A stretch of 32,000 nt of DNA from Nitrosopumilus cobalaminigenes (GCF_013407145.1 NZ_CP026993.1:858590-890589), one strand, 5' to 3'. Counted from the stretch's first letter, positions 8,887 through 30,018 are shown. The notes: generated by a model not told the origin, from the letters alone. Numbers and translations: made by a program.

Positions 8887-10200
8887 CTATTCAGTATTAA
8901 AGAAGGGTAAATAATCAATATTCAAAATAAATGGGAATACGCCATAGTTACTATTCCCAACTAATATTCCATCATGTCTTGGTAGAGAAAGGTATGTTTG
9001 AGCAAGTCCAACTTCAGTTTCAGTAACAATATCAATTAGAACATTAGACACGTTTAATGAAATTTCATATTCATAAATGATGATATTTTTTAAAGACAAA
9101 TCATGATCGTGAGTATAAATATCCAATAATTTTTCACTGAGAACTATCTCAACAGAACTATCACCTTCCTTGATAAATGAAGTTAATGCCGAAACAATTT
9201 CAGGGCTAATCGTAGTCAGAACAATACTTTTTATTTTTTTATCAGAAATTGTTTTAAATTCAGTTATTGCTTTTTCGTTGGATTTATACGAATTCAAAGA
9301 ATCAATTACAATTATTCCATTCTCGCCCTCAATGAATATGCTAGAAGATTTATCAAAATCAATAATGGACCAAATGCCATCTGCAATTCGTTGAATTTTT
9401 GGAAAATCAGAATCATCAATCAAATTATTTTCAACAGGTAAAGTTTGTTCATCCTCAACAGGTAAAGTTTGTTCATCCTCAACAGGTAAAGTTTGTTCAT
9501 CCTCAACAGGTAAAGTTTGTTCATCCTCAACAGGTAAAGTTTGTTCATCCTCAACAGGTAAAGTTTGTTCATCCTCAACAGGTAAAGTTTGTTCATCCTC
9601 AACAGGTAAAGTTTGTTCATCCTCAACAGGTAAAGTTTGTTCATCCTCAACAGGTAAAGTTTGTTCATCCTCAACAGAATCAGTTACTGTAAAAACATCA
9701 CCAGGGTCAATCTCAAGAACATGGTCTTGTGGTTTTTCAGTTTCAACAATTTCAGCCATTCCTAATCGCTCCCAAGTTAGGGCTGTAAACATATTTGCAC
9801 AAATCGTATCTCGATATGAAAATTGATATATCAAAACTTGGCCACCTCTACATTCAGAAGTATAATTTACTTCAGGTGATTTCACTGGTGGTGGAGGAGG
9901 GGCACCAGGATATTTTTCTTCATATGATGCAATATCAATTTCAGATTCATCCTTCTCAGTAGAAGTAGAATTTTGAACAATTTCAGCAATACCTAATTCT
10001 GCCCATCTTTCAGCAGTGGTTGGATCTACACAGATAAAATCAAGATATGTAGAGCGGTAAACTAGACTTTGATCATCTCTACATCCAGCCATAAGATCCT
10101 CCTGTGCCTCAGATTCCACAGAAGCATAAGAAAAAGAAACAAAGATAGAAGTAAATAAAATCACCATAATGGCCAAGAATGAGAAAGTCCTAGTCATCAT
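8887..10200 (-). CDS. secreted acidic protein with (VEDEQTLP)x10 repeat and a duplicated Cys-bracketed module
   Basis: 437-aa ORF with an N-terminal signal/TM. A 36-aa module occurs twice (C..Q.L.Y.S.Y.D.IC......W..LG.AEIV). There is a PPPPP linker and ten perfect octapeptide repeats. Confidence 0.75.
   Translation of the reverse strand: MMTRTFSFLAIMVILFTSIFVSFSYASVESEAQEDLMAGCRDDQSLVYRSTYLDFICVDPTTAERWAELGIAEIVQNSTSTEKDESEIDIASYEEKYPGAPPPPPVKSPEVNYTSECRGGQVLIYQFSYRDTICANMFTALTWERLGMAEIVETEKPQDHVLEIDPGDVFTVTDSVEDEQTLPVEDEQTLPVEDEQTLPVEDEQTLPVEDEQTLPVEDEQTLPVEDEQTLPVEDEQTLPVEDEQTLPVEDEQTLPVENNLIDDSDFPKIQRIADGIWSIIDFDKSSSIFIEGENGIIVIDSLNSYKSNEKAITEFKTISDKKIKSIVLTTISPEIVSALTSFIKEGDSSVEIVLSEKLLDIYTHDHDLSLKNIIIYEYEISLNVSNVLIDIVTETEVGLAQTYLSLPRHDGILVGNSNYGVFPFILNIDYLPFFNTE
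9431..9677. repeat. perfect 24-bp tandem repeat x10 (plus a 7-nt partial copy), in-frame within CDS 8887..10200
   Basis: The unit TCAACAGGTAAAGTTTGTTCATCC repeats head to tail from 9431 to 9670 with no substitution visible. It is open in several frames, which explains the spurious ORFs 9399..9692 and 9420..9674. Confidence 0.95.
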
Positions 10201-16004: not shown

Positions 16005-16022
16005 TTATTCTTTATCGATAAA
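16005..16022. repeat. left copy of the target-site duplication (TTATTCTTTATCGATAAA)
   Basis: Identical to 30001..30018, and 19 bp long if 16004/30000 are included. The reverse complement reads F-I-D-K-E-stop, which is the aEF-2 C-terminus. Confidence 0.9.
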
Positions 16023-16060
16023 AATAGAATGCCCCCCGTTTAGGCGCTAAAACAGACAGG
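16022..16060 (+). repeat. outer left terminal inverted repeat (L1)
   Basis: AAATAGAATGCCCCCCGTTTAGGCGCTAAAACAGACAGG compared with the reverse complement of 29962..30000, AAATAGAATGCCCCCCTTTTACGCCTAATTTTAGACGGT. The first 16 nt are identical and roughly 70% match thereafter. Confidence 0.85.
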
Positions 16061-16347: not shown

Positions 16348-16399
16348 AAATAGAATGCCTCCTTTCTAGGCAGGATTTTAGACGGTACTAGATGATTTT
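16348..16399 (+). repeat. second, internal left-end TIR copy (L2)
   Basis: AAATAGAATGCCTCCTTTCTAGGCAGGATTTTAGACGGTAC--TAGATGATTTT aligns over ~54 nt with the reverse complement of the right end, including the blocks ATTTTAGACGGTAC and TAGATGATTTT that L1 lacks. Confidence 0.8.
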
Positions 16400-18116: not shown

Positions 18117-18232
18117 AATAATCTGCAATTACTATATGATTACTTTTGATCATACTCCGATAGAATACGATAATATCCCGAGTTAATGCGATTATACTCC
18201 GATATGACACAATTATGGTAATAATCGTGAGA

Positions 18233-18350
18233 GGCTCAGCTTTTGCTCGGGCACGATGGTTTTGCGATTATGGGTGGCTCAGCTTTTACTCAGGCACGAT
18301 GGTTTTGCGATTATGGGTGGCTCAGCTTTTACTCAGGCACGATTATATGG
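18233..18350. repeat. 43-bp tandem repeat, 2.6-2.7 copies, intergenic
   Basis: The unit GGCTCAGCTTTTACTCAGGCACGATGGTTTTGCGATTATGGGT occurs at 18233, 18276 and 18319 (partial). Copy 1 differs from copy 2 at 2 positions. The array lies between convergent genes. Confidence 0.9.
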
Positions 18351-18361
18351 AAAACAGGGCT

Positions 18362-18646
18362 CTATTGGAATTCTTTTTTCAACTCATCGTATTCTGCTTT
18401 TGTAATCTCGCCTTTTGCCAATCTAGTTTTTAGAATATTCAATGAATTGTTGTTTTGATCATTTTTGATTTTATCAGGATTCTCTTCAGTTACAGGGGGA
18501 TTGGATTGTAAATCAGACATGTCTTCTTGAAATGTGTTTTTTGATTTTCTGCTTGCTACAATTGCGATAACTACAATTATTGGAATTACAAATAAAATCA
18601 AAACTAGCAATTCAGTAGTGCCAATCATATTGACATATTGCATCAT
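18362..18646 (-). CDS. single-TM protein with C-terminal SHOCT domain (94 aa)
   Basis: N-terminal TM LLVLILFVIPIIVVIAIVA. The C-terminal LNILKTRLAKGEITKAEYDELKKEF fits the SHOCT consensus. Confidence 0.65.
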   Translation of the reverse strand: MMQYVNMIGTTELLVLILFVIPIIVVIAIVASRKSKNTFQEDMSDLQSNPPVTEENPDKIKNDQNNNSLNILKTRLAKGEITKAEYDELKKEFQ

Positions 18647-19275
18647 TTCTCAAATTCCCCCTTTAACTCATCATACTCTGACTTTGTAATCTCACCTTTT
18701 GCTAGTCTACTTTTTAGAATTCCTAAATTACTTAGATCATCATCTTTAGGATTGACATATGCTTTAGCAGATTGTGATTGTTTTGGTCTGGAATGATATG
18801 CTTTTCTTTTTTCGCAAGTCGTATGATGATTATGCAGTTCTTTACCGTTTTCTGCTAAATAATTACAGTATACACATCGCTCATAATCACTACGTCCTTT
18901 GAAGTAATCTACTACATGTGGTCTCCACATGTAAAATAGAACTATTACATCTATCACGATATATCCAATTGCAAATACATTTCCTCCAAATAGTGTCATT
19001 AGTTGAATTATCAAATTAACTATTGCAAGAATGATTACAATTACTCTACCACCACTTCTTCCGCTGAACAATGCACCAGCAATTGTAAACTCGATTAATG
19101 CTGCAATAACTATTGCAGATGCAATCCAACCTGCAAATTGACCAATTCCACCAAGAAATGAATTACCCATCATACTATTTGCAATATATCCAACCCCAAT
19201 TGCCAGAGCAAACAAGGTCAGCCCTTCAAGAATATACCAAACTCCTAGAAATGAAACGCCTAGAGGTCTACCCAT
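18643..19275 (-). CDS. multi-TM protein with Cys/His cluster and C-terminal SHOCT domain (210 aa)
   Basis: Four or so TM helices, then CVYCNYL...HNHHTTC, then the C-terminal LGILKSRLAKGEITKSEYDELKGEF. There is a 4-nt overlap with the downstream SHOCT gene. Confidence 0.7.
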   Translation of the reverse strand: MGRPLGVSFLGVWYILEGLTLFALAIGVGYIANSMMGNSFLGGIGQFAGWIASAIVIAALIEFTIAGALFSGRSGGRVIVIILAIVNLIIQLMTLFGGNVFAIGYIVIDVIVLFYMWRPHVVDYFKGRSDYERCVYCNYLAENGKELHNHHTTCEKRKAYHSRPKQSQSAKAYVNPKDDDLSNLGILKSRLAKGEITKSEYDELKGEFEK

Positions 19276-19458
19276 TAGATATCCCTCTTTTGAGAAATCA
19301 TAGAGTTTACACTAGAAATCTGAAACTCTGTCAAGTGAAGAAAATATGAATTTCTCAACATAGGGTTTGCCAAAAAATTGCATATAAACAATATTGTAGT
19401 TTAAGATGTTACAATTACGTTTACGAGTATTCATGCGTCAAACCCTGAATAAATCGAT

Positions 19459-19490
19459 GGCTCAGATTTTACTCAGGCACGATTGTATCA
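19459..19490. repeat. isolated distal copy of the first ~32 nt of the 43-bp repeat family
   Basis: GGCTCAGATTTTACTCAGGCACGATTGTAT compared with GGCTCAGCTTTTACTCAGGCACGATTATAT at 18319. Both are in the same orientation, on the far side of the two SHOCT genes. Confidence 0.8.
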
Positions 19491-19554
19491 AAAAGAGTAG
19501 AATTTGAGGGTGTTTTGTAGAAGAGTTTAGAAATCACTTTACAAATCATAAGTT

Positions 19555-20850
19555 ATGAATGTCCAAGACAAAAGAAAGAATGGGATAAACAACGATACAA
19601 TAATTTCTGAATTAGAAAAAATTCCCACTATCAATCAATATGAAGATGTTCTCATTCGATTAGCAGTTGACAAATTAACTGATTCTAATAATCTCTATTT
19701 TGCAAGGATTGATTATCTCTGTAAAGGAGATCCTTTACCTGAAGAATTTACAAAAAACTATGATGATATAATCATTACACAGTTAATCAAAAAACGTGGC
19801 GAGTTTATAGAATTTTTATCAAACTTACTGAAAAACGGTTCATCAAAAATTAATGAGATTACTGTCAGTGCATCAATGAAACAAAACTGGGATTTTGTAT
19901 CTAGACCAAGTAATTCATCTCACGGTTATGTAAAAAGTGATTTTCCTCATTTAGGTGCAGAAACTCAATTAGAATATGATCGAAATAGAGATCCTTATGC
20001 CCTAGTTTCGGGGAAAAACCTCCCTCCATTTCCAAATACATCTAGGGCAATAATTGATTTGTTTGATTTGCATCATGGAGGAAGAGAAGGAGGATGGTTA
20101 AATGAAAATAAATTGATTATAGATGTACCTGATTATCGGGTAGGAATAAAGAAACTTAGAATTGGAAAAAATAAAATTTCAGTAGAAATTAATTCAAAAT
20201 TATTAGATGAATCAAAATTAGTCTGTCAGTTTTACACAGAAAAGAAACAAGAGGTTTCATCACGCATACAAAATGGAATTTCTGAAATGTCTTGTGAGGA
20301 TATCCCTAAAGAAATTCTTGCAGTGATAAAAGAAAAGGAAACTGATGAGGTTCTAGATTTTTTTGATTACACTGTAAGTTGGGCAATGTCTGAAGAAGCA
20401 GTAGAAAAAGAGGTTCCTGAAGATGTGATTCGAGGCTGGATTAATGGGGGAGAAAATGAAACAGTGGAATTCAAGGAAGTGCTCAAACATGCAGATGATG
20501 TCATGAAGTCAGTAGTTGCTTTTGCCAATACAGAGGGGGGCGTAATTCTTGTTGGAGTATCTGATGATTGTTCTATACTGGGATATGATGTTCCAGTAGA
20601 AGATGTAAAAAATAGATTTGGCAGAATGGTTGCAGACAAATGTGATCCTCCCATAGAATTTGAAATAGAAGAAGCCGATTTGAATCCACGAATAATTGTG
20701 ATAAAAATTCCTAAAGGAAAAAGCAAGATCTATTCAGTAACTAATGGTGCAATCTATGTTAGAAGACATAGTTCGGATAGATTCATCAAAACTACTGAGT
20801 TGATGGAAGTTTTTGGAGATAAGTCTCGAAATGATAATAATTCTGTTTAA
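19555..20850 (+). CDS. protein with C-terminal AlbA_2 (Schlafen/divergent-AAA-type) putative DNA-binding domain (431 aa)
   Basis: GENETVEFKEVLKHADDVMKSVVAFANTEGGVILVGVSDD is the characteristic E.E.K....AFAN..GG.+..GV.D signature. The N-terminal ~290 aa are unassigned. Confidence 0.7.
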   Translation: MNVQDKRKNGINNDTIISELEKIPTINQYEDVLIRLAVDKLTDSNNLYFARIDYLCKGDPLPEEFTKNYDDIIITQLIKKRGEFIEFLSNLLKNGSSKINEITVSASMKQNWDFVSRPSNSSHGYVKSDFPHLGAETQLEYDRNRDPYALVSGKNLPPFPNTSRAIIDLFDLHHGGREGGWLNENKLIIDVPDYRVGIKKLRIGKNKISVEINSKLLDESKLVCQFYTEKKQEVSSRIQNGISEMSCEDIPKEILAVIKEKETDEVLDFFDYTVSWAMSEEAVEKEVPEDVIRGWINGGENETVEFKEVLKHADDVMKSVVAFANTEGGVILVGVSDDCSILGYDVPVEDVKNRFGRMVADKCDPPIEFEIEEADLNPRIIVIKIPKGKSKIYSVTNGAIYVRRHSSDRFIKTTELMEVFGDKSRNDNNSV

Positions 20851-21959: not shown

Positions 21960-23741
21960 TTAGATCGTAATTTTTTGTATATAATTTAATGAAATAGACA
22001 TTGAATCATTACATTCCTTTTGATCAATTGATTCAATTGTACCCAACCACAATCTTTTCCTATCCGCATTAAGATTAACTTCTCTAGTTATTGGTGCAAT
22101 CTTTCCAATGTCTTGTATCCTATCTGATAGTATGCTTGAACGTAATCTAGAATTTCTCAACACATTAAATTTGTAAAATAATTTCCCGTCTTTTTCAAAT
22201 GTATCCAAGTGTTCAATTTCCTTAGACCCTAATCGTCCCAAACCACGTTGTTTCCAAATCCCGTTAAATCGATAGAATCCATTTTGTAAATAGAAGGTAT
22301 CTTGACTCTCACCATCATATGAGAAATCGCCTAATCGTTTAGAATCTAAATTCAGTTTCTTGGTAGTACAGATTGAATCAGTCGCAAAGGCCACAATGTC
22401 TCCCTCAAGCCTGTTTCTAGTCACAAATTCGTACAATTTGGCACGAGTATACCCTGTGATGAATGCAAACATTACAGGATTAAACAAATTCCCCATTACA
22501 CCATTGATCTTTTGGCCAGTCTTCCCATAAATTGAATTTAAGATAATTTTGATTGGTTGCTCTAATGGATTATTTTCTTTCTTTAGTTTCTGTCTTTTTT
22601 GATACAAAGATTGAATGAATTTTCTGTATGGATAAATATCAGATGTACTGATAAATTGATAACCTTCAAGAATCCTGTAAAGATTTTTTTTGCAGGCTTG
22701 GAGTTCTGATAACGTACAATACGTTACAAATTTCCCTGAAGGGTACAATATGACATTATTTGTTTTAAATGGGAATGGTGCCACTATACTATCATCTGGA
22801 ATATCACATAATACTTTGAAGAATCCCAACTTTGTATCTGCGTGTATTGATTTTCTTTTAATCCATTTACCTTTAGATAAATCTGGAAAGTGGGCAATGG
22901 CATCAGGGTATGCAGAGTTGATATCATAAAGATAGGCCTTGCCAATGTATCCTCGCTTGATTAATTCAATTCGTCCTCCAAAATATGACTTGAATGCTAA
23001 CTCTTGAATTGGATAAGGAGTATCAACGAATCTAGGTAGATTGATCCCATTGTTGATCAGAACTTTTTCTGCCAAATATCCTGCACTGGTCCATTTGGCA
23101 GGATAAAATGAAAATGCATTGCTAAATAGTGTAATCCATTTTTCAGATAATTCTTTTGTAAATTTACAATCTTGTATACAATAGTTTCTAATTTTTTTCT
23201 TGTTGTGATTGTAAAATCGTAATGTAAATTCTTTACGCTTTTCTTTCATAGAGAGATATTCTGAAGATAATTCTCCAATGTTTTTCTGATATGCATTACT
23301 TAGAGAACCTCCAAAGAATTGCATTATATCAAAAAACAATACTGAATGATGACCTTTCTTGATTCGAAGAGATTTGCCAGGAAAATATTCTAGATGGTAA
23401 TCCCCCCACCAGAAATCTAATTTTCCAGTGAAGCGATATCGATACAGTTCTGAGCCTAGCAGTTTGAGGATAACTTCGGCATCATAGGATAGATTATAGA
23501 AAAAGTTCCATGAACCGTGATATTTTTTACAAAATAGCCATTTTATCACGGATTCAGGTGTGATTTTGTCTAAATATCGCCCATCAGAGTCCGCAATTAG
23601 AAAGATATCTCCTTTGTAGGTCTCAGTGTCTAAGGCATGAATTTGTCGTAATTTAGAATGTGCAGAGTTGCGATTTTGAGGCCTTTTGGTGTAGACCTTG
23701 GATAAATCCCGGCACTCTGTTACGGGGAAGGATTCTGCCAT
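21960..23741 (-). CDS. polB: family B DNA polymerase, protein-primed type (pPolB)
   Basis: ExoI is ALDTETY (D38/E40), ExoII is YNLSYD (D87) and ExoIII is YCIQD (Y187/D191). YFGG lies at residues 253-256. Motif A is LYDINSAYP (D273), motif B is KIILNSIYGKTG (K398) and motif C is VAFATDSI (D455). At 593 aa it is similar in size to phage phi29 pol. Confidence 0.9.
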   Translation of the reverse strand: MAESFPVTECRDLSKVYTKRPQNRNSAHSKLRQIHALDTETYKGDIFLIADSDGRYLDKITPESVIKWLFCKKYHGSWNFFYNLSYDAEVILKLLGSELYRYRFTGKLDFWWGDYHLEYFPGKSLRIKKGHHSVLFFDIMQFFGGSLSNAYQKNIGELSSEYLSMKEKRKEFTLRFYNHNKKKIRNYCIQDCKFTKELSEKWITLFSNAFSFYPAKWTSAGYLAEKVLINNGINLPRFVDTPYPIQELAFKSYFGGRIELIKRGYIGKAYLYDINSAYPDAIAHFPDLSKGKWIKRKSIHADTKLGFFKVLCDIPDDSIVAPFPFKTNNVILYPSGKFVTYCTLSELQACKKNLYRILEGYQFISTSDIYPYRKFIQSLYQKRQKLKKENNPLEQPIKIILNSIYGKTGQKINGVMGNLFNPVMFAFITGYTRAKLYEFVTRNRLEGDIVAFATDSICTTKKLNLDSKRLGDFSYDGESQDTFYLQNGFYRFNGIWKQRGLGRLGSKEIEHLDTFEKDGKLFYKFNVLRNSRLRSSILSDRIQDIGKIAPITREVNLNADRKRLWLGTIESIDQKECNDSMSISLNYIQKITI

Positions 23742-24675: not shown

Positions 24676-25317
24676 ATGGCCAATTATAGACGAGAACTAT
24701 CTAAAATTGAGCAAAAAGATGTCCATTCCAGATACAAAATACATACAGATGATTATGGAGGAATTTTCACCAAAGACAAACGTCGAAAGTTACTTGGTCT
24801 TAAACAAAAACAAGGAAAGTATCATGAAGATACTGCGGATTTTTGGTATGATGTGAGGTCTAGTGTAAAAAGTGGTTTGATGGATCTAGAGTTATTTTTT
24901 GAAGTAGCCGATAAAAATCAAATCAAAGATGTACTTTATGATGCAGAACAAAAAGCACAATTAGATTTACTAAAACAAAAACTTGAACTTAACAAACAAT
25001 ATGAACTAGAAAGACAAATTCCATCCTTCACACGTGTCTTATCTGTATTATTTCAAAAATATTACAAATCTCGCAAGTACAAATTATCTACAGGTGAAAC
25101 TAGAAAATATTCTGAACATGTTGAAGAAGATGATACATGGAGGGCAGAAATTATTGAAAAAATGATCAACACTTGTATTATTTATTTAAGAGATCATAAT
25201 TTGATTTCTTCAAAAGCACATGAACGATTGACTGATGAATTTATTGATATGGTTAATGTTGAAATTGCTAGAGGAACAAAACTGTCTTTAAATGAGAGAG
25301 TAAAAGGTTCTGTTTAA
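24676..25317 (+). CDS. hypothetical protein (213 aa)
   Basis: Clean ORF, divergent from the polB operon across a 56-nt AT-rich spacer. No recognised domain. Confidence 0.6.
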   Translation: MANYRRELSKIEQKDVHSRYKIHTDDYGGIFTKDKRRKLLGLKQKQGKYHEDTADFWYDVRSSVKSGLMDLELFFEVADKNQIKDVLYDAEQKAQLDLLKQKLELNKQYELERQIPSFTRVLSVLFQKYYKSRKYKLSTGETRKYSEHVEEDDTWRAEIIEKMINTCIIYLRDHNLISSKAHERLTDEFIDMVNVEIARGTKLSLNERVKGSV

Positions 25318-27017: not shown

Positions 27018-27809
27018 ATGTGGTTTGATAATCCTTTGTTACCGCCTTTACTAGTTCTTGTTGCTATTGGTATTGCTGTTGGATATATGATAGGATTTGT
27101 TGATAATGATGTAGATTCTGCAAGTGAATTGGGGATTTATCTTGCTGCAATTTCAATTGGATTGACAGGAGCAGTTTTCATATTGCAAAGTAAAACTAGC
27201 CATGAAGTTAAAGATATTGTTAAGAAAATGGATGATGAAAAAAAGGATAGAAAAGAATATGTCCTCAGAGGATTGGTAAACGCGTTTAGAGAAACACGTT
27301 ATAATCTGCAATTGATGCGTTCAGAATTACTGACATTGGCACGATCCAATGGAGTAAATGGAAATAAGCAAACAATAGAAAACAATTGGAAAATTATTAA
27401 CAATTCAGGAGTTGACAGAATTCAATTTTTAATAACATTGTCTCATGATGTTATTTCAACCTCTAAATTAGATCAAATTGAAACTGTCAAAAATATTATG
27501 AAATCCGAATATGATTCAGATTATAACACCATGAGTACTATAGTATCGTTCTTGTTAACTCAATCAGATTATGTATTTAGAGATGATCTTAAAGAATTAC
27601 GACTTAAAATGGCAAAAGAAGAAATTTCAAAATTAGTATCAGAATTAAAAAGTGGGGCGGATGAAAATTCATTAAGTTTTCAGAGAAATAAAAGGCGGTG
27701 GGAATCCTATCTATATTTACCAACAGATGATGAAATCAAAAATGAGTGTGAATCTAAACTTGAAGCAACTTCTTCTGAAGACAGCACTCTGCCAGATTTT
27801 GAACCATGA
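27018..27809 (+). CDS. two-TM N-terminal anchor plus helical cytoplasmic domain protein (263 aa)
   Basis: TM helices LLPPLLVLVAIGIAVGYMIGF and LGIYLAAISIGLTGAVFIL. The 3' end overlaps the 3' end of cas1 by 56 nt (convergent). Confidence 0.6.
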   Translation: MWFDNPLLPPLLVLVAIGIAVGYMIGFVDNDVDSASELGIYLAAISIGLTGAVFILQSKTSHEVKDIVKKMDDEKKDRKEYVLRGLVNAFRETRYNLQLMRSELLTLARSNGVNGNKQTIENNWKIINNSGVDRIQFLITLSHDVISTSKLDQIETVKNIMKSEYDSDYNTMSTIVSFLLTQSDYVFRDDLKELRLKMAKEEISKLVSELKSGADENSLSFQRNKRRWESYLYLPTDDEIKNECESKLEATSSEDSTLPDFEP

Positions 27810-28770
27810 CCTTAGCAACAGTAATCTCTTGAACTGATTTCAGACCTGATTTTGTCTTCTTTCCGTGCCTAAAATCATACTTTCTTTCCTGTGAAAATTG
27901 CCTTTCTAATAATTCTAAAAACCTTCTAATCAAATCGTATTCAATTACTACAGTTCCATCTTTGGTGTAACTATACTCTTTGAGTTTGATTCTATTTCTC
28001 TTCTCTTTGTTATTTGCAATTTTATACACAGAATAGTCCACTAACCATCTGAATGGCTCAATCAAATCATAAACTAGGGGTTGAAATCCTGTGTGAGTTT
28101 TATGCATAAATCCAAAGTAAGGATCAAGACCAATTCCACAGACAAATTTTGATATCTCACCTGCCAAAACAGAATACCCATAATTCAGTAAAGCATTGAT
28201 GATGTCAGTTGCATCATTTTTGGCAATTCTGATAGAGGATTGATTCCTTGAATGAAATCCATATTTTTCCGGGATGAATTTGGCATATTCTCTAAAGTAG
28301 ATTATGGCGGCAGATGATTCTCTATCAGGTAATGAAGTAATGCCACTACCAATTAGTTTGAGCAGTTTTAGTTGAGATTCTTTTTTGGCCGAGATGATTT
28401 GTTTTCTCAGATATCCACATTTTGACTCGTTTCGAAACGTATCATATTGTGCTATTCGGTATTTTGTTCCAGTTAGAGAATCCATCATGCCATTACAGAA
28501 AGTGACGGGTTTTCCGTGATTATCAAGTAAAATGACATTTCGGTTATTTTGAGAAAGTAGCGATAATGCCTCAGTGGAGACGTAGCCCTTTCCTGAAATA
28601 ACAATTTTCTCATATGGCATGTTTTTGACAAACCATTCCTCAATTTCAGGCTCAGAAAATGGGTCGTGATTTGATTTTAGGATAATTTTAGAATTTTTAA
28701 CAGAAATAGAATGACCATAGCCTTTGAGGAATTTTATGTTATAGTGGTTTTTTTGACCTTTAAGAGTCAA
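27754..28770 (-). CDS. cas1: Cas1 family integrase (casposase), solo
   Basis: ESSAAIIYF (E151), the signature INALLNYGYSVLAGEI....GLDPYFGFMHKT (H223) and PLVYDLIEPFR (D235/E238), and an N-terminal beta-rich domain. 338 aa. There is no cas2 or CRISPR in the window. Confidence 0.9.
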   Translation of the reverse strand: MTLKGQKNHYNIKFLKGYGHSISVKNSKIILKSNHDPFSEPEIEEWFVKNMPYEKIVISGKGYVSTEALSLLSQNNRNVILLDNHGKPVTFCNGMMDSLTGTKYRIAQYDTFRNESKCGYLRKQIISAKKESQLKLLKLIGSGITSLPDRESSAAIIYFREYAKFIPEKYGFHSRNQSSIRIAKNDATDIINALLNYGYSVLAGEISKFVCGIGLDPYFGFMHKTHTGFQPLVYDLIEPFRWLVDYSVYKIANNKEKRNRIKLKEYSYTKDGTVVIEYDLIRRFLELLERQFSQERKYDFRHGKKTKSGLKSVQEITVAKVMVQNLAECCLQKKLLQV

Positions 28771-29665
28771 ATTCTTTAATTTGATATTCTACATCTTCAA
28801 ACGGATTTTCTAATTGATTAAGCTGATTGTAAATCAGAGTAATTGCAATGTTCAAACAATTCCAAGCATTCTCTTGAGTCACTTCTCTTTTTTTCCTATG
28901 AACAATATCATTTCTTAATTTTCTTAATTTTGTAAAGCATTCATATCCTTTTGAATCAAGTTTCTCAGAAAACGTAAAGGCCTCAATATAATGACTAGTG
29001 CTCCAAGAATGATGATTTTTTAATGCTTGTCTTTCCTCCTTTGTTCTCTTCAAATCTTTGACAAATTTTTCCCAAACTCTTTCTATAACACTTTCAATAA
29101 CAATCCAGGAATTAAGAAAAGATATGCTAAACAATTCATCTTGATACATTCCACCAGATTCACCAATTATCAACAAATCATTTTTGAAACTATCATTGTC
29201 AAGGAAACGAGCTGATTGATCAATTAACATTTCCATAAGATGTTTTTGAATTGGTTGTCTTTCAATTGTTGACCAATATTCATAGTCTACATCATCTTCA
29301 CGTTTACTTTCTTGAATTACCCGTAAAGATTTACTCAAACTACCTGCAGCTACAACATAATCCCAATCTTCTTTCCAAGTAAATCCACAGATATCATTTT
29401 TTGTAATAAATCTGGCCCGATGAAATTTTGTGATAAATACTGCAAAAAGTACATTGAGAAATTCAAATGCTTCATCTTCGTTTTTCCCAATAGGACAAAC
29501 AAAACAATCATCAGTTACTAGAACTCGCAATCCTTCGGATGTAGTAGTGTCGATAACAATGGGTCTTTTAATCGTCGATATTCGTGGTAGTTTCTCAGGA
29601 TTTGCTTCATAAAGTTGAGATGGTGGATAAAAAAATGTGCCAAAACCAATCGTTCTTCCAGTCAT
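28760..29665 (-). CDS. protein with C-terminal HEPN-like domain (R-x4-H), 301 aa
   Basis: KLRKLRNDIVHRK (R251-N-D-I-V-H256, nt 28898..28915) sits in a helical C-terminal half. The stop overlaps the cas1 start by 11 nt, and the start overlaps the upstream ORF stop by 4 nt. Confidence 0.6.
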   Translation of the reverse strand: MTGRTIGFGTFFYPPSQLYEANPEKLPRISTIKRPIVIDTTTSEGLRVLVTDDCFVCPIGKNEDEAFEFLNVLFAVFITKFHRARFITKNDICGFTWKEDWDYVVAAGSLSKSLRVIQESKREDDVDYEYWSTIERQPIQKHLMEMLIDQSARFLDNDSFKNDLLIIGESGGMYQDELFSISFLNSWIVIESVIERVWEKFVKDLKRTKEERQALKNHHSWSTSHYIEAFTFSEKLDSKGYECFTKLRKLRNDIVHRKKREVTQENAWNCLNIAITLIYNQLNQLENPFEDVEYQIKEFDS

Positions 29666-29889
29666 GTATTGTCTCTAATCTTAGTCATTTTTACAGATTT
29701 CCTAGTTAATTCATCAATTGCACTCTGAATAATAGAATGATCTCTATTTGCCATTTGACTTAACATTTGAGCAGTTTCTTTCAAATCTTGATTGTTAAAT
29801 CCTTGAGCACTTTGCTTCCAATTCTCAGCATAGAATTTTAGCATATTTTGATAGTTGGACAATATCTCAATTGCCTTGGCTTTTGTCAT
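29662..29889 (-). CDS. small helical protein (75 aa), first gene of the cas1 operon
   Basis: ORF beginning ~110 nt inside the right TIR terminus. A TATA-like CTTTAAG lies ~30 nt upstream. Confidence 0.5.
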   Translation of the reverse strand: MTKAKAIEILSNYQNMLKFYAENWKQSAQGFNNQDLKETAQMLSQMANRDHSIIQSAIDELTRKSVKMTKIRDNT

Positions 29890-29946: not shown

Positions 29947-30000
29947 AAAATCATCTAGTGTACCGTCTAAAATTAGGCGTAAAAGGGGGGCATTCTATTT
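29947..30000 (-). repeat. right terminal inverted repeat (R)
   Basis: The reverse complement is AAATAGAATGCCCCCCTTTTACGCCTAATTTTAGACGGTACACTAGATGATTTT. It pairs with L1 (16022) and, over a longer span, with L2 (16348). Confidence 0.85.
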
Positions 30001-30018
30001 TTATTCTTTATCGATAAA
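30001..30018. repeat. right copy of the target-site duplication; also the last 5 codons plus stop of aEF-2
   Basis: TTATTCTTTATCGATAAA is identical to 16005..16022. Confidence 0.9.

Follow-up and report, generated by a model that had tools for sequence, protein, structure and literature searches.

The CRISPR adaptation module has been proposed to descend from casposons, and what travels with the casposon Cas1 is therefore of evolutionary interest. In this report, we analyze a gene directly upstream of cas1 in a family 1 casposon of Nitrosopumilus cobalaminigenes (Nitrosopumilaceae), which encodes a protein of 301 amino acids (aa) with a C-terminal HEPN domain. The gene is located within a stretch of 32,000 nucleotides (nt) of the 1.56-Mb single-contig genome (NZ_CP026993.1:858590-890589); the whole of this stretch is called the window, and positions are counted from its start. 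The 301-aa protein is likely to be an accessory HEPN RNase of an unnamed and widespread two-domain family that occupies a variable site upstream of cas1 and acts as defense or abortive-infection cargo.

Family 1 casposons of the Thaumarchaeota usually target the gene for aEF-2 (PMC4046053, PMC6563490). In one of them, NitEve-C1 from Ca. Nitrososphaera evergladensis SR1, a HEPN protein of ~315 aa (NTE_01362, AIF83430.1, arCOG06139) is encoded beside cas1 and has been read as defense-type cargo (PMC6563490), and the casposons of Methanosarcina carry HEPN and AbiF-like genes (PMC4779613). The gene from N. cobalaminigenes shares with NTE_01362 the HEPN annotation, the position next to cas1, and the residence in a thaumarchaeal family 1 casposon. 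However, NTE_01362 is found downstream of cas1 after a gap of ~230 nt, rather than upstream and overlapping, and it is only a possible member of the same sequence family. HEPN domains are defined by a motif at the end of helix 3, a polar residue (N, D, or H) after the arginine, and a conserved acidic residue in helix 2, typically within Ex3[KR] (PMC3710099).

HEPN domain of the 301-aa protein

The gene and the parts of its product that are discussed below are as follows.

28760-29665, minus strand: open reading frame (ORF) for the 301-aa protein, the HEPN gene (ORF call)
28805-29197, minus strand: HEPN domain, C-terminal, residues 157-287
28898-28915, minus strand: codons R251-N252-D-I-V-H256, the predicted HEPN catalytic motif (from the sequence, its conservation, and its position in the model)
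29198-29665, minus strand: N-terminal alpha/beta domain, residues 1-156, confidently modeled

The 301-aa ORF encodes a genuine protein of two domains that is subject to purifying selection. Nine close homologues with identities of 39-77% were found, and the ratio of nonsynonymous to synonymous substitution rates (dN/dS) was determined to be 0.14 against the homologue on metagenome contig L028, the closest available DNA, and 0.28 against that of the Nitrosarchaeum genome G054. The homologues and the dN/dS values rule out a spurious ORF.

The AlphaFold2 model of the whole protein (predicted local distance difference test, pLDDT, 87.8; predicted template modeling score, pTM, 0.84) consists of two domains. 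The C-terminal domain is modeled as a four-helix, up-down, all-alpha core (residues 158-175, 179-204, 238-255, and 264-282) with a helical insert (209-216 and 223-232) between helices 2 and 3. The four-helix HEPN bundle for which the initial annotation had asked a structure prediction to look is thus seen in the model, and R251 and H256 are placed at the end of the third core helix (238-255).

The same annotation had called attention to R251-x4-H256 within a helical C-terminal half. The sequence KLRKLRNDIVHRK is present and intact, with R251 at nt 28913-28915 and H256 at nt 28898-28900. A bare R-x4-H was found in 5 of the 22 window ORFs of at least 150 aa, and therefore the motif by itself is not above chance and is not evidence. 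It is raised above chance because it is conserved and well placed in the predicted fold. Among 113 representatives of the family with less than 50% mutual identity, W187 and H256 are invariant, and R251, N252, E191, and W198 are each conserved in at least 90%, so that the dependence of the HEPN call on conservation of the arginine and the histidine in homologues has been answered in its favor. N252, directly after R251, is the polar residue of the motif. E191, in SWxIIE, is the conserved acidic residue of helix 2 (179-204), but the exact Ex3[KR] spacing is not evident there, the protein reading E191-SVIE-R196. From the alignment and the model, the domain is predicted to carry a complete RNase site made up of R251, N252, H256, and E191. 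These residues also bear on whether the domain might serve in binding or regulation without catalysis, as it does in MtlR and when fused to nucleotidyltransferases, so that the protein would not be an RNase. The Rx4-6H motif has usually been lost from non-catalytic HEPN domains (PMC3710099), unlike in the family described here, and a non-catalytic role is highly improbable.

The best profile match was obtained with HEPN_RiboL-PSP of Pfam (PF18735; E 5e-5), in which residues 191-280 align to profile positions 92-184 with a score of 23.7 bits against a gathering cutoff of 28.4. DUF4145 (17.6 vs 23.1 bits), HEPN_Cthe2314 (17.2 vs 27.1), and HEPN_Swt1 (17.0 vs 27.5) were also below their Pfam cutoffs. 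The profile search that had been proposed as a check was therefore answered in part: the sub-threshold matches come from four separate HEPN families and all cover the region of the motif, but none passes a curated cutoff. The CARF_HEPN models of PADLOC match residues 137-284 only, the best PADLOC match being 20 bits, and NCBIfam and PHROGs contain no family for the protein. When the whole model was searched against the PDB with Foldseek, nothing significant was found, and the top rows (IDH1 and others) were noise. When residues 157-287 were aligned with 48,161 PDB representatives, the resulting list consisted largely of HEPN proteins, with HepS, Las1, and Cas13b further down. Sequence profiles and the modeled fold together support the C-terminal half as a member of the HEPN superfamily, and the protein was filed at the superfamily level only, without assignment to any curated family, because no curated family cutoff was passed.

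Most members of the family are 470-520 aa in length, and the 301-aa protein is a short form. An extra N-terminal region of ~199 aa precedes the whole two-domain module in 73 of the 113 aligned representatives; its origin as a duplicate of the N-terminal domain or of the HEPN domain was considered and rejected (hhalign probabilities of 0.2% and 1.1%, respectively). Within the N-terminal domain, P14, G54, N71, and R115 are conserved in at least 90%, and D53 is conserved within the short forms. The alignment suggests that these positions form a functional site. No structural match to the domain was obtained in the fold searches, and no module of the MNT, CARF, or RnlA type was detected; the lists returned by the fold searches contain no CARF protein, an absence that does not exclude a CARF relationship. 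The RnlA and LsoA (RNase LS) toxins have one or more TBP-like N-terminal domains before a Dmd-binding HEPN domain. We infer that the N-terminal domain is a sensor or a regulatory, auto-inhibitory domain.

The site upstream of cas1 and the small gene orf75

The remaining features at the right end of the casposon are listed below.

29960-30000, no strand: right terminal inverted repeat (TIR) of the family 1 casposon, abutting the aEF-2 stop codon
29662-29889, minus strand: orf75, encoding a small helical protein, the first gene inside the TIR (ORF call)
27754-28770, minus strand: cas1 (casposase), with a TTG start, a Pfam Cas_Cas1 match of 4e-41, and an N-terminus conserved in 30 loci

The element has the hallmarks of a family 1 casposon, since cas1 and a protein-primed PolB gene (DNA_pol_B_2 match of 4e-26 at 21960-23741) are found between TIRs at the 3' end of aEF-2, which ends at position 30001 and touches the right TIR. 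This TIR pairs with 16348-16388 over 41 nt at 83% (inverted repeat I1). Positions 29977-30004 pair with 16018-16045 over 28 nt at 93% (inverted repeat I7), and the latter segment represents a second left end.

The gene order and the overlaps given in the initial annotation were borne out by the ORF coordinates. The stop codon of orf75 and the start of the HEPN gene overlap by 4 nt (ATGA), the HEPN gene runs 11 nt past the TTG start of cas1, and orf75, the HEPN gene, and cas1 form a tight string that reads inward from the right TIR. The TTG start is genuine because the N-terminus M/L-T-L-K-G-Q-K-N-H-Y-N is conserved across 30 related casposases, 12 of which use a TTG start. Given such tight packing, transcription and translation of the HEPN gene are presumably coupled to those of the casposase.

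Casposases 51-86% identical to this Cas1 were found in about 30 of the sampled genomes, a tally that includes the unpublished genomes G258, G260, G077, G092, and G206. The ORFs upstream of cas1 were surveyed in the window and in the 1.5-kb cas1 flanks of 29 other Nitrosopumilaceae genomes (L030-L058), and the HEPN gene was absent upstream of cas1 in all 29 of the other loci examined. At 24 of the 30 loci the end of the upstream ORF falls in a range from 3 nt ahead of the cas1 start to 31 nt beyond it, the two genes most commonly overlapping by 4 nt, and the upstream ORFs of the 30 casposons fall into 25 unrelated sequence groups. Tight coupling is therefore a general property of this position, a hypervariable cargo site closely linked to the casposase gene, for which the HEPN gene is one of numerous alternative occupants. 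Other occupants include two GNAT acetyltransferases, DUF922, DUF4760, and TPR proteins, and several membrane proteins. In genome G274, the site holds an AbiV HEPN protein of 198 aa (L035:908-1501, G274:C10; PF18728, 43 bits vs a cutoff of 27.1, 6.4e-11) whose gene and the start of cas1 share 4 nt; here a different HEPN family was captured independently at the same position. The upstream ORF is aEF-2 itself at two loci, and some of the upstream ORFs may belong to the host at the site of insertion. An earlier generalization, drawn from five loci with aEF-2 in the flank, that cas1 is always the terminal gene beside the TIR was dropped after this survey. As a separate observation, the aEF-2 frame in G190 (L054:2-1504, G190:C22) remains open for ~50 codons beyond the usual end and reaches the cas1 start, and the casposon insertion seems to have replaced the aEF-2 stop codon.

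Two degraded copies of the element indicate that the arrangement in the window is a feature of the lineage and not a one-off. On contig L028, a TIR-like sequence (3 mismatches in 19 nt; chance expectation 0) is followed after 115 nt by a homologue of orf75 (orf64), by a HEPN gene that is 75% identical, and by a cas1 stub. The junction between the HEPN gene and cas1 is the same 11 nt, and the TTG start is followed by a 6-codon stub, "MTIKGH", after which the cas1 sequence breaks off. In the Nitrosarchaeum genome G054, an intact HEPN gene (55% identical) is followed by a 28-aa cas1 relic beside the gene for aspartyl-tRNA synthetase, and a TIR-like sequence was not found. Thus, cas1 has been lost twice, with different breakpoints, and the HEPN gene is intact in both copies, which argues for selection on the cargo itself. 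A third locus, in genome G027, is an island directly after aEF-2 (L018:9490-16000, G027:C1) that contains homologues of the HEPN gene and orf75 together with genes for Mrr, an OLD-family nuclease, and a TPR protein. Neither a cas1 in the fetched region nor TIRs bounding the island at aEF-2 could be detected; it may be a decayed or non-autonomous casposon.

These comparisons bear on whether the HEPN protein could serve the life cycle of the casposon, by cutting host or element RNA to slow the cell during transposition or replication or by excluding rival casposons at aEF-2. The tight coupling with cas1 has been kept in the lineage, down to the same junction in L028, two unrelated HEPN families (the present one and the AbiV of G274) occupy the same position and overlap the cas1 start, and tandem or remnant casposon ends at one site demonstrate competition for the target. 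However, most casposons of the family have no HEPN gene at this position and carry unrelated ORFs instead (membrane proteins, GNAT, TPR, DUF922), the HEPN family occurs mostly outside casposons, and the retention of the HEPN gene after the destruction of cas1 argues for a function that is independent of cas1. A role in the life cycle is therefore very unlikely. A related and more speculative proposal, which is also quite improbable, is that the upstream site is a dedicated cargo site, translated with the casposase, that repeatedly captures toxin-type enzymes (two unrelated HEPN families and the GNATs), with the HEPN RNase wired to expression of the casposase, for example for host arrest during casposition or for exclusion of rival casposons at the same target. 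If true, it would be a natural example of a Cas1 integrase acting with an RNA-targeting effector outside of CRISPR. The comparisons show the HEPN gene to be accessory cargo and not a core partner of the casposase.

The initial annotation had proposed that the 75-aa protein encoded by orf75 is a partner of the HEPN protein. A word-indexed homology search with orf75 returned only orf75 itself; its homologues came from profile searches of genomes. No curated family in Pfam, NCBIfam, or PHROGs, no nucleotidyltransferase signature, and no similarity to a known antitoxin was found. Together, orf75 and the HEPN protein could constitute a two-gene toxin-antitoxin (addiction) pair, in which orf75 neutralizes the HEPN RNase and cells that lose the casposon are killed or arrested. 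The ATGA overlap is consistent with such a pair, and the two genes are adjacent in three elements: in the window, in L028 (orf75 homologue before the HEPN gene, 11-nt overlap), and in G027, where the order is reversed, the shared orf75 N-terminus reads MTKAKAI-IL, and the genes are still together. The HEPN gene is also intact after the decay of cas1, as would be found for an addictive module. Against this proposal, two loci that lack the HEPN gene (G084 and G235) have a homologue of orf75 immediately ahead of a divergent cas1 (38-41% identity), and a weak relative of orf75 is a chromosomal gene in five of the five genomes of one genus, with no HEPN gene or cas1 within 1.5 kb at the three loci where the query proteins found this relative. 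Conversely, the HEPN homologues of G054, G256, Nitrosotalea, and the long forms examined have no orf75 match nearby, and orf75 is unlike known antitoxins. It belongs to a small family whose usual place is the cas1-proximal end of casposons; it fits better as a small gene belonging to that end than as an antitoxin specific to the HEPN protein, and it is probably not a dedicated antitoxin. Since orf75 is found beside the HEPN gene in G027 with no cas1 nearby, the toxin-antitoxin pair is kept as a live, if unlikely, explanation. At the G084 (L061, G084:C75) and G235 (L065, G235:C57) loci, which represent two genera, the casposase is directly downstream of a gene for a type II NADH dehydrogenase (NDH-2), and this gene may be a further casposon target site.

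Overall, what the initial annotation had observed at this locus was confirmed, and its HEPN call is supported. Its assignment of orf75 as a partner was weakened, as was its view of the link between Cas1 and an RNA-targeting effector as a special fusion, the latter being one instance of a hypervariable site with 25 families in 30 casposons.

The wider family and the probable role of the HEPN protein

A profile search of 1.84 billion representative sequences returned 862 clusters at E<=1e-3 and 328 at E<=1e-10. The family is found in both bacteria and archaea, mostly outside of casposons, and no name for its members was found in any source, the cluster members carrying no source names. Matches were found in 13 of 300 other Nitrosopumilaceae genomes (including the unpublished G260), in 17 of 401 genomes of the class, and in 6 of 238 Nitrososphaeraceae genomes (including the unpublished G633). 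A search of 238 Nitrososphaeraceae genomes with profile A2 returned no full-length short form of ~300 aa, a result for which the flanks were not checked for cas1 and the presence of evergladensis SR1 in the set was not confirmed. Scans for related loci yielded three on genome contigs, one on metagenome contigs, and none on viral contigs.

In addition to Mrr and the OLD-family nuclease of G027, the neighbors of the homologues include a DndB-like protein and Fic in Nitrosotalea, an ApeA-like HEPN protein (weak match) and a D12 methyltransferase in G256, a GAP1-N2/DO-GTPase2 protein in G299, an AAA_15/AAA_21 ATPase in G109, and transposase helix-turn-helix (HTH) genes in G269. Overall, the neighbors and the patchy spread are the profile of a defense or conflict gene.

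A working mechanism for the protein as defense cargo can be proposed. The HEPN protein would dimerize and, as in other HEPN proteins, form a metal-independent RNase site that depends on the motif arginine and histidine; the N-terminal domain would keep this site inactive until it is triggered, for example by infection or stress. Cleavage of RNA would then arrest the cell as an abortive-infection defense, and the benefit to the host could stabilize the casposon. Several points weigh against this interpretation. The defense role is drawn from the neighborhoods of only ~8 loci, and the distant members in G282 and G141 sit among ordinary copper-protein genes. A constitutively active toxin would need a neutralizer, and none is firmly identified. 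In addition, even the best profile match, to HEPN_RiboL-PSP, does not reach its cutoff. An accessory HEPN RNase that acts in defense or abortive infection nevertheless appears to be the likely explanation. This is a large HEPN family for which there is no model in Pfam, NCBIfam, or PADLOC, and its folded N-terminal domain has no structural relative; it is therefore a reasonable candidate for a new single-protein defense or toxin system.

Other features were found in the window. The casposon carries, as further cargo, a gene for a Schlafen AlbA_2 domain protein of 431 aa (PF04326, 4e-23; 19555-20850, plus strand). A 213-aa ORF at 24676-25317 (plus strand) has a weak match to the Cas13-ApeA (HEPN) model of PADLOC over residues 79-161 (E 0.001) and contains R143-x4-H148; its homologues are found beside cas1 in L034 and L053, and it may be a second HEPN-like gene of the casposon. 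Three 43-nt tandem repeats at 18228-18356, with a fourth, diverged copy 1.1 kb away at 19454-19496, lie inside the casposon and flank two genes for SHOCT-domain membrane proteins (18362-19275). Outside of the casposon, a perfect 24-nt tandem array of ~16 units (9359-9742) is located within a 437-aa ORF (8887-10200, minus strand).

Comparison with described HEPN systems

The structures closest to the HEPN domain are those of minimal HEPN proteins, the HepT toxins, and the HEPN domain of Csm6. The minimal archaeal HEPN proteins (2hsb, 1wol, 1ufb) and HepT differ in size, the 301-aa protein being twice as long and having an extra N-terminal domain. In the HepT/HEPN-MNT (type VII) systems (5yep, 7ae2, 8xdj), the toxin has an MNT nucleotidyltransferase partner, and no such partner was found among the casposon ORFs that were scanned. 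Csm6 and Csx1 (8jbc, 6tug) differ in that no CARF or Rossmann-like N-terminal fold was detected in the 301-aa protein. There is also no CRISPR array or other cas gene at this locus, and the link to Cas1 is made through the transposon and not through an adaptation module.

AbiV (PDB 9bj5, PF18728), the family captured in G274, lacks the canonical histidine of Rx4-6H and uses an alternative histidine (PMC3710099), and it has no equivalent of the 156-aa N-terminal domain. The clade of Ribo L-PSP-HEPN and AbiD/AbiF proteins gives the best profile match and shares with the 301-aa protein the R-N-x3-H motif and the association with conflict systems (PMC3710099). However, that match remains under the cutoff (23.7 vs 28.4 bits), and no search identified the N-terminal domain of the 301-aa protein as an L-PSP endoribonuclease domain. 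The described Ribo L-PSP-HEPN family is bacterial and linked to ParB (PMC3710099).

HEPN cargo in casposons is already published, and because of these earlier reports none of the present findings overturns current views. The survey of the upstream ORFs shows a hypervariable cargo site at the cas1-proximal end of thaumarchaeal casposons, where HEPN genes have been captured independently.

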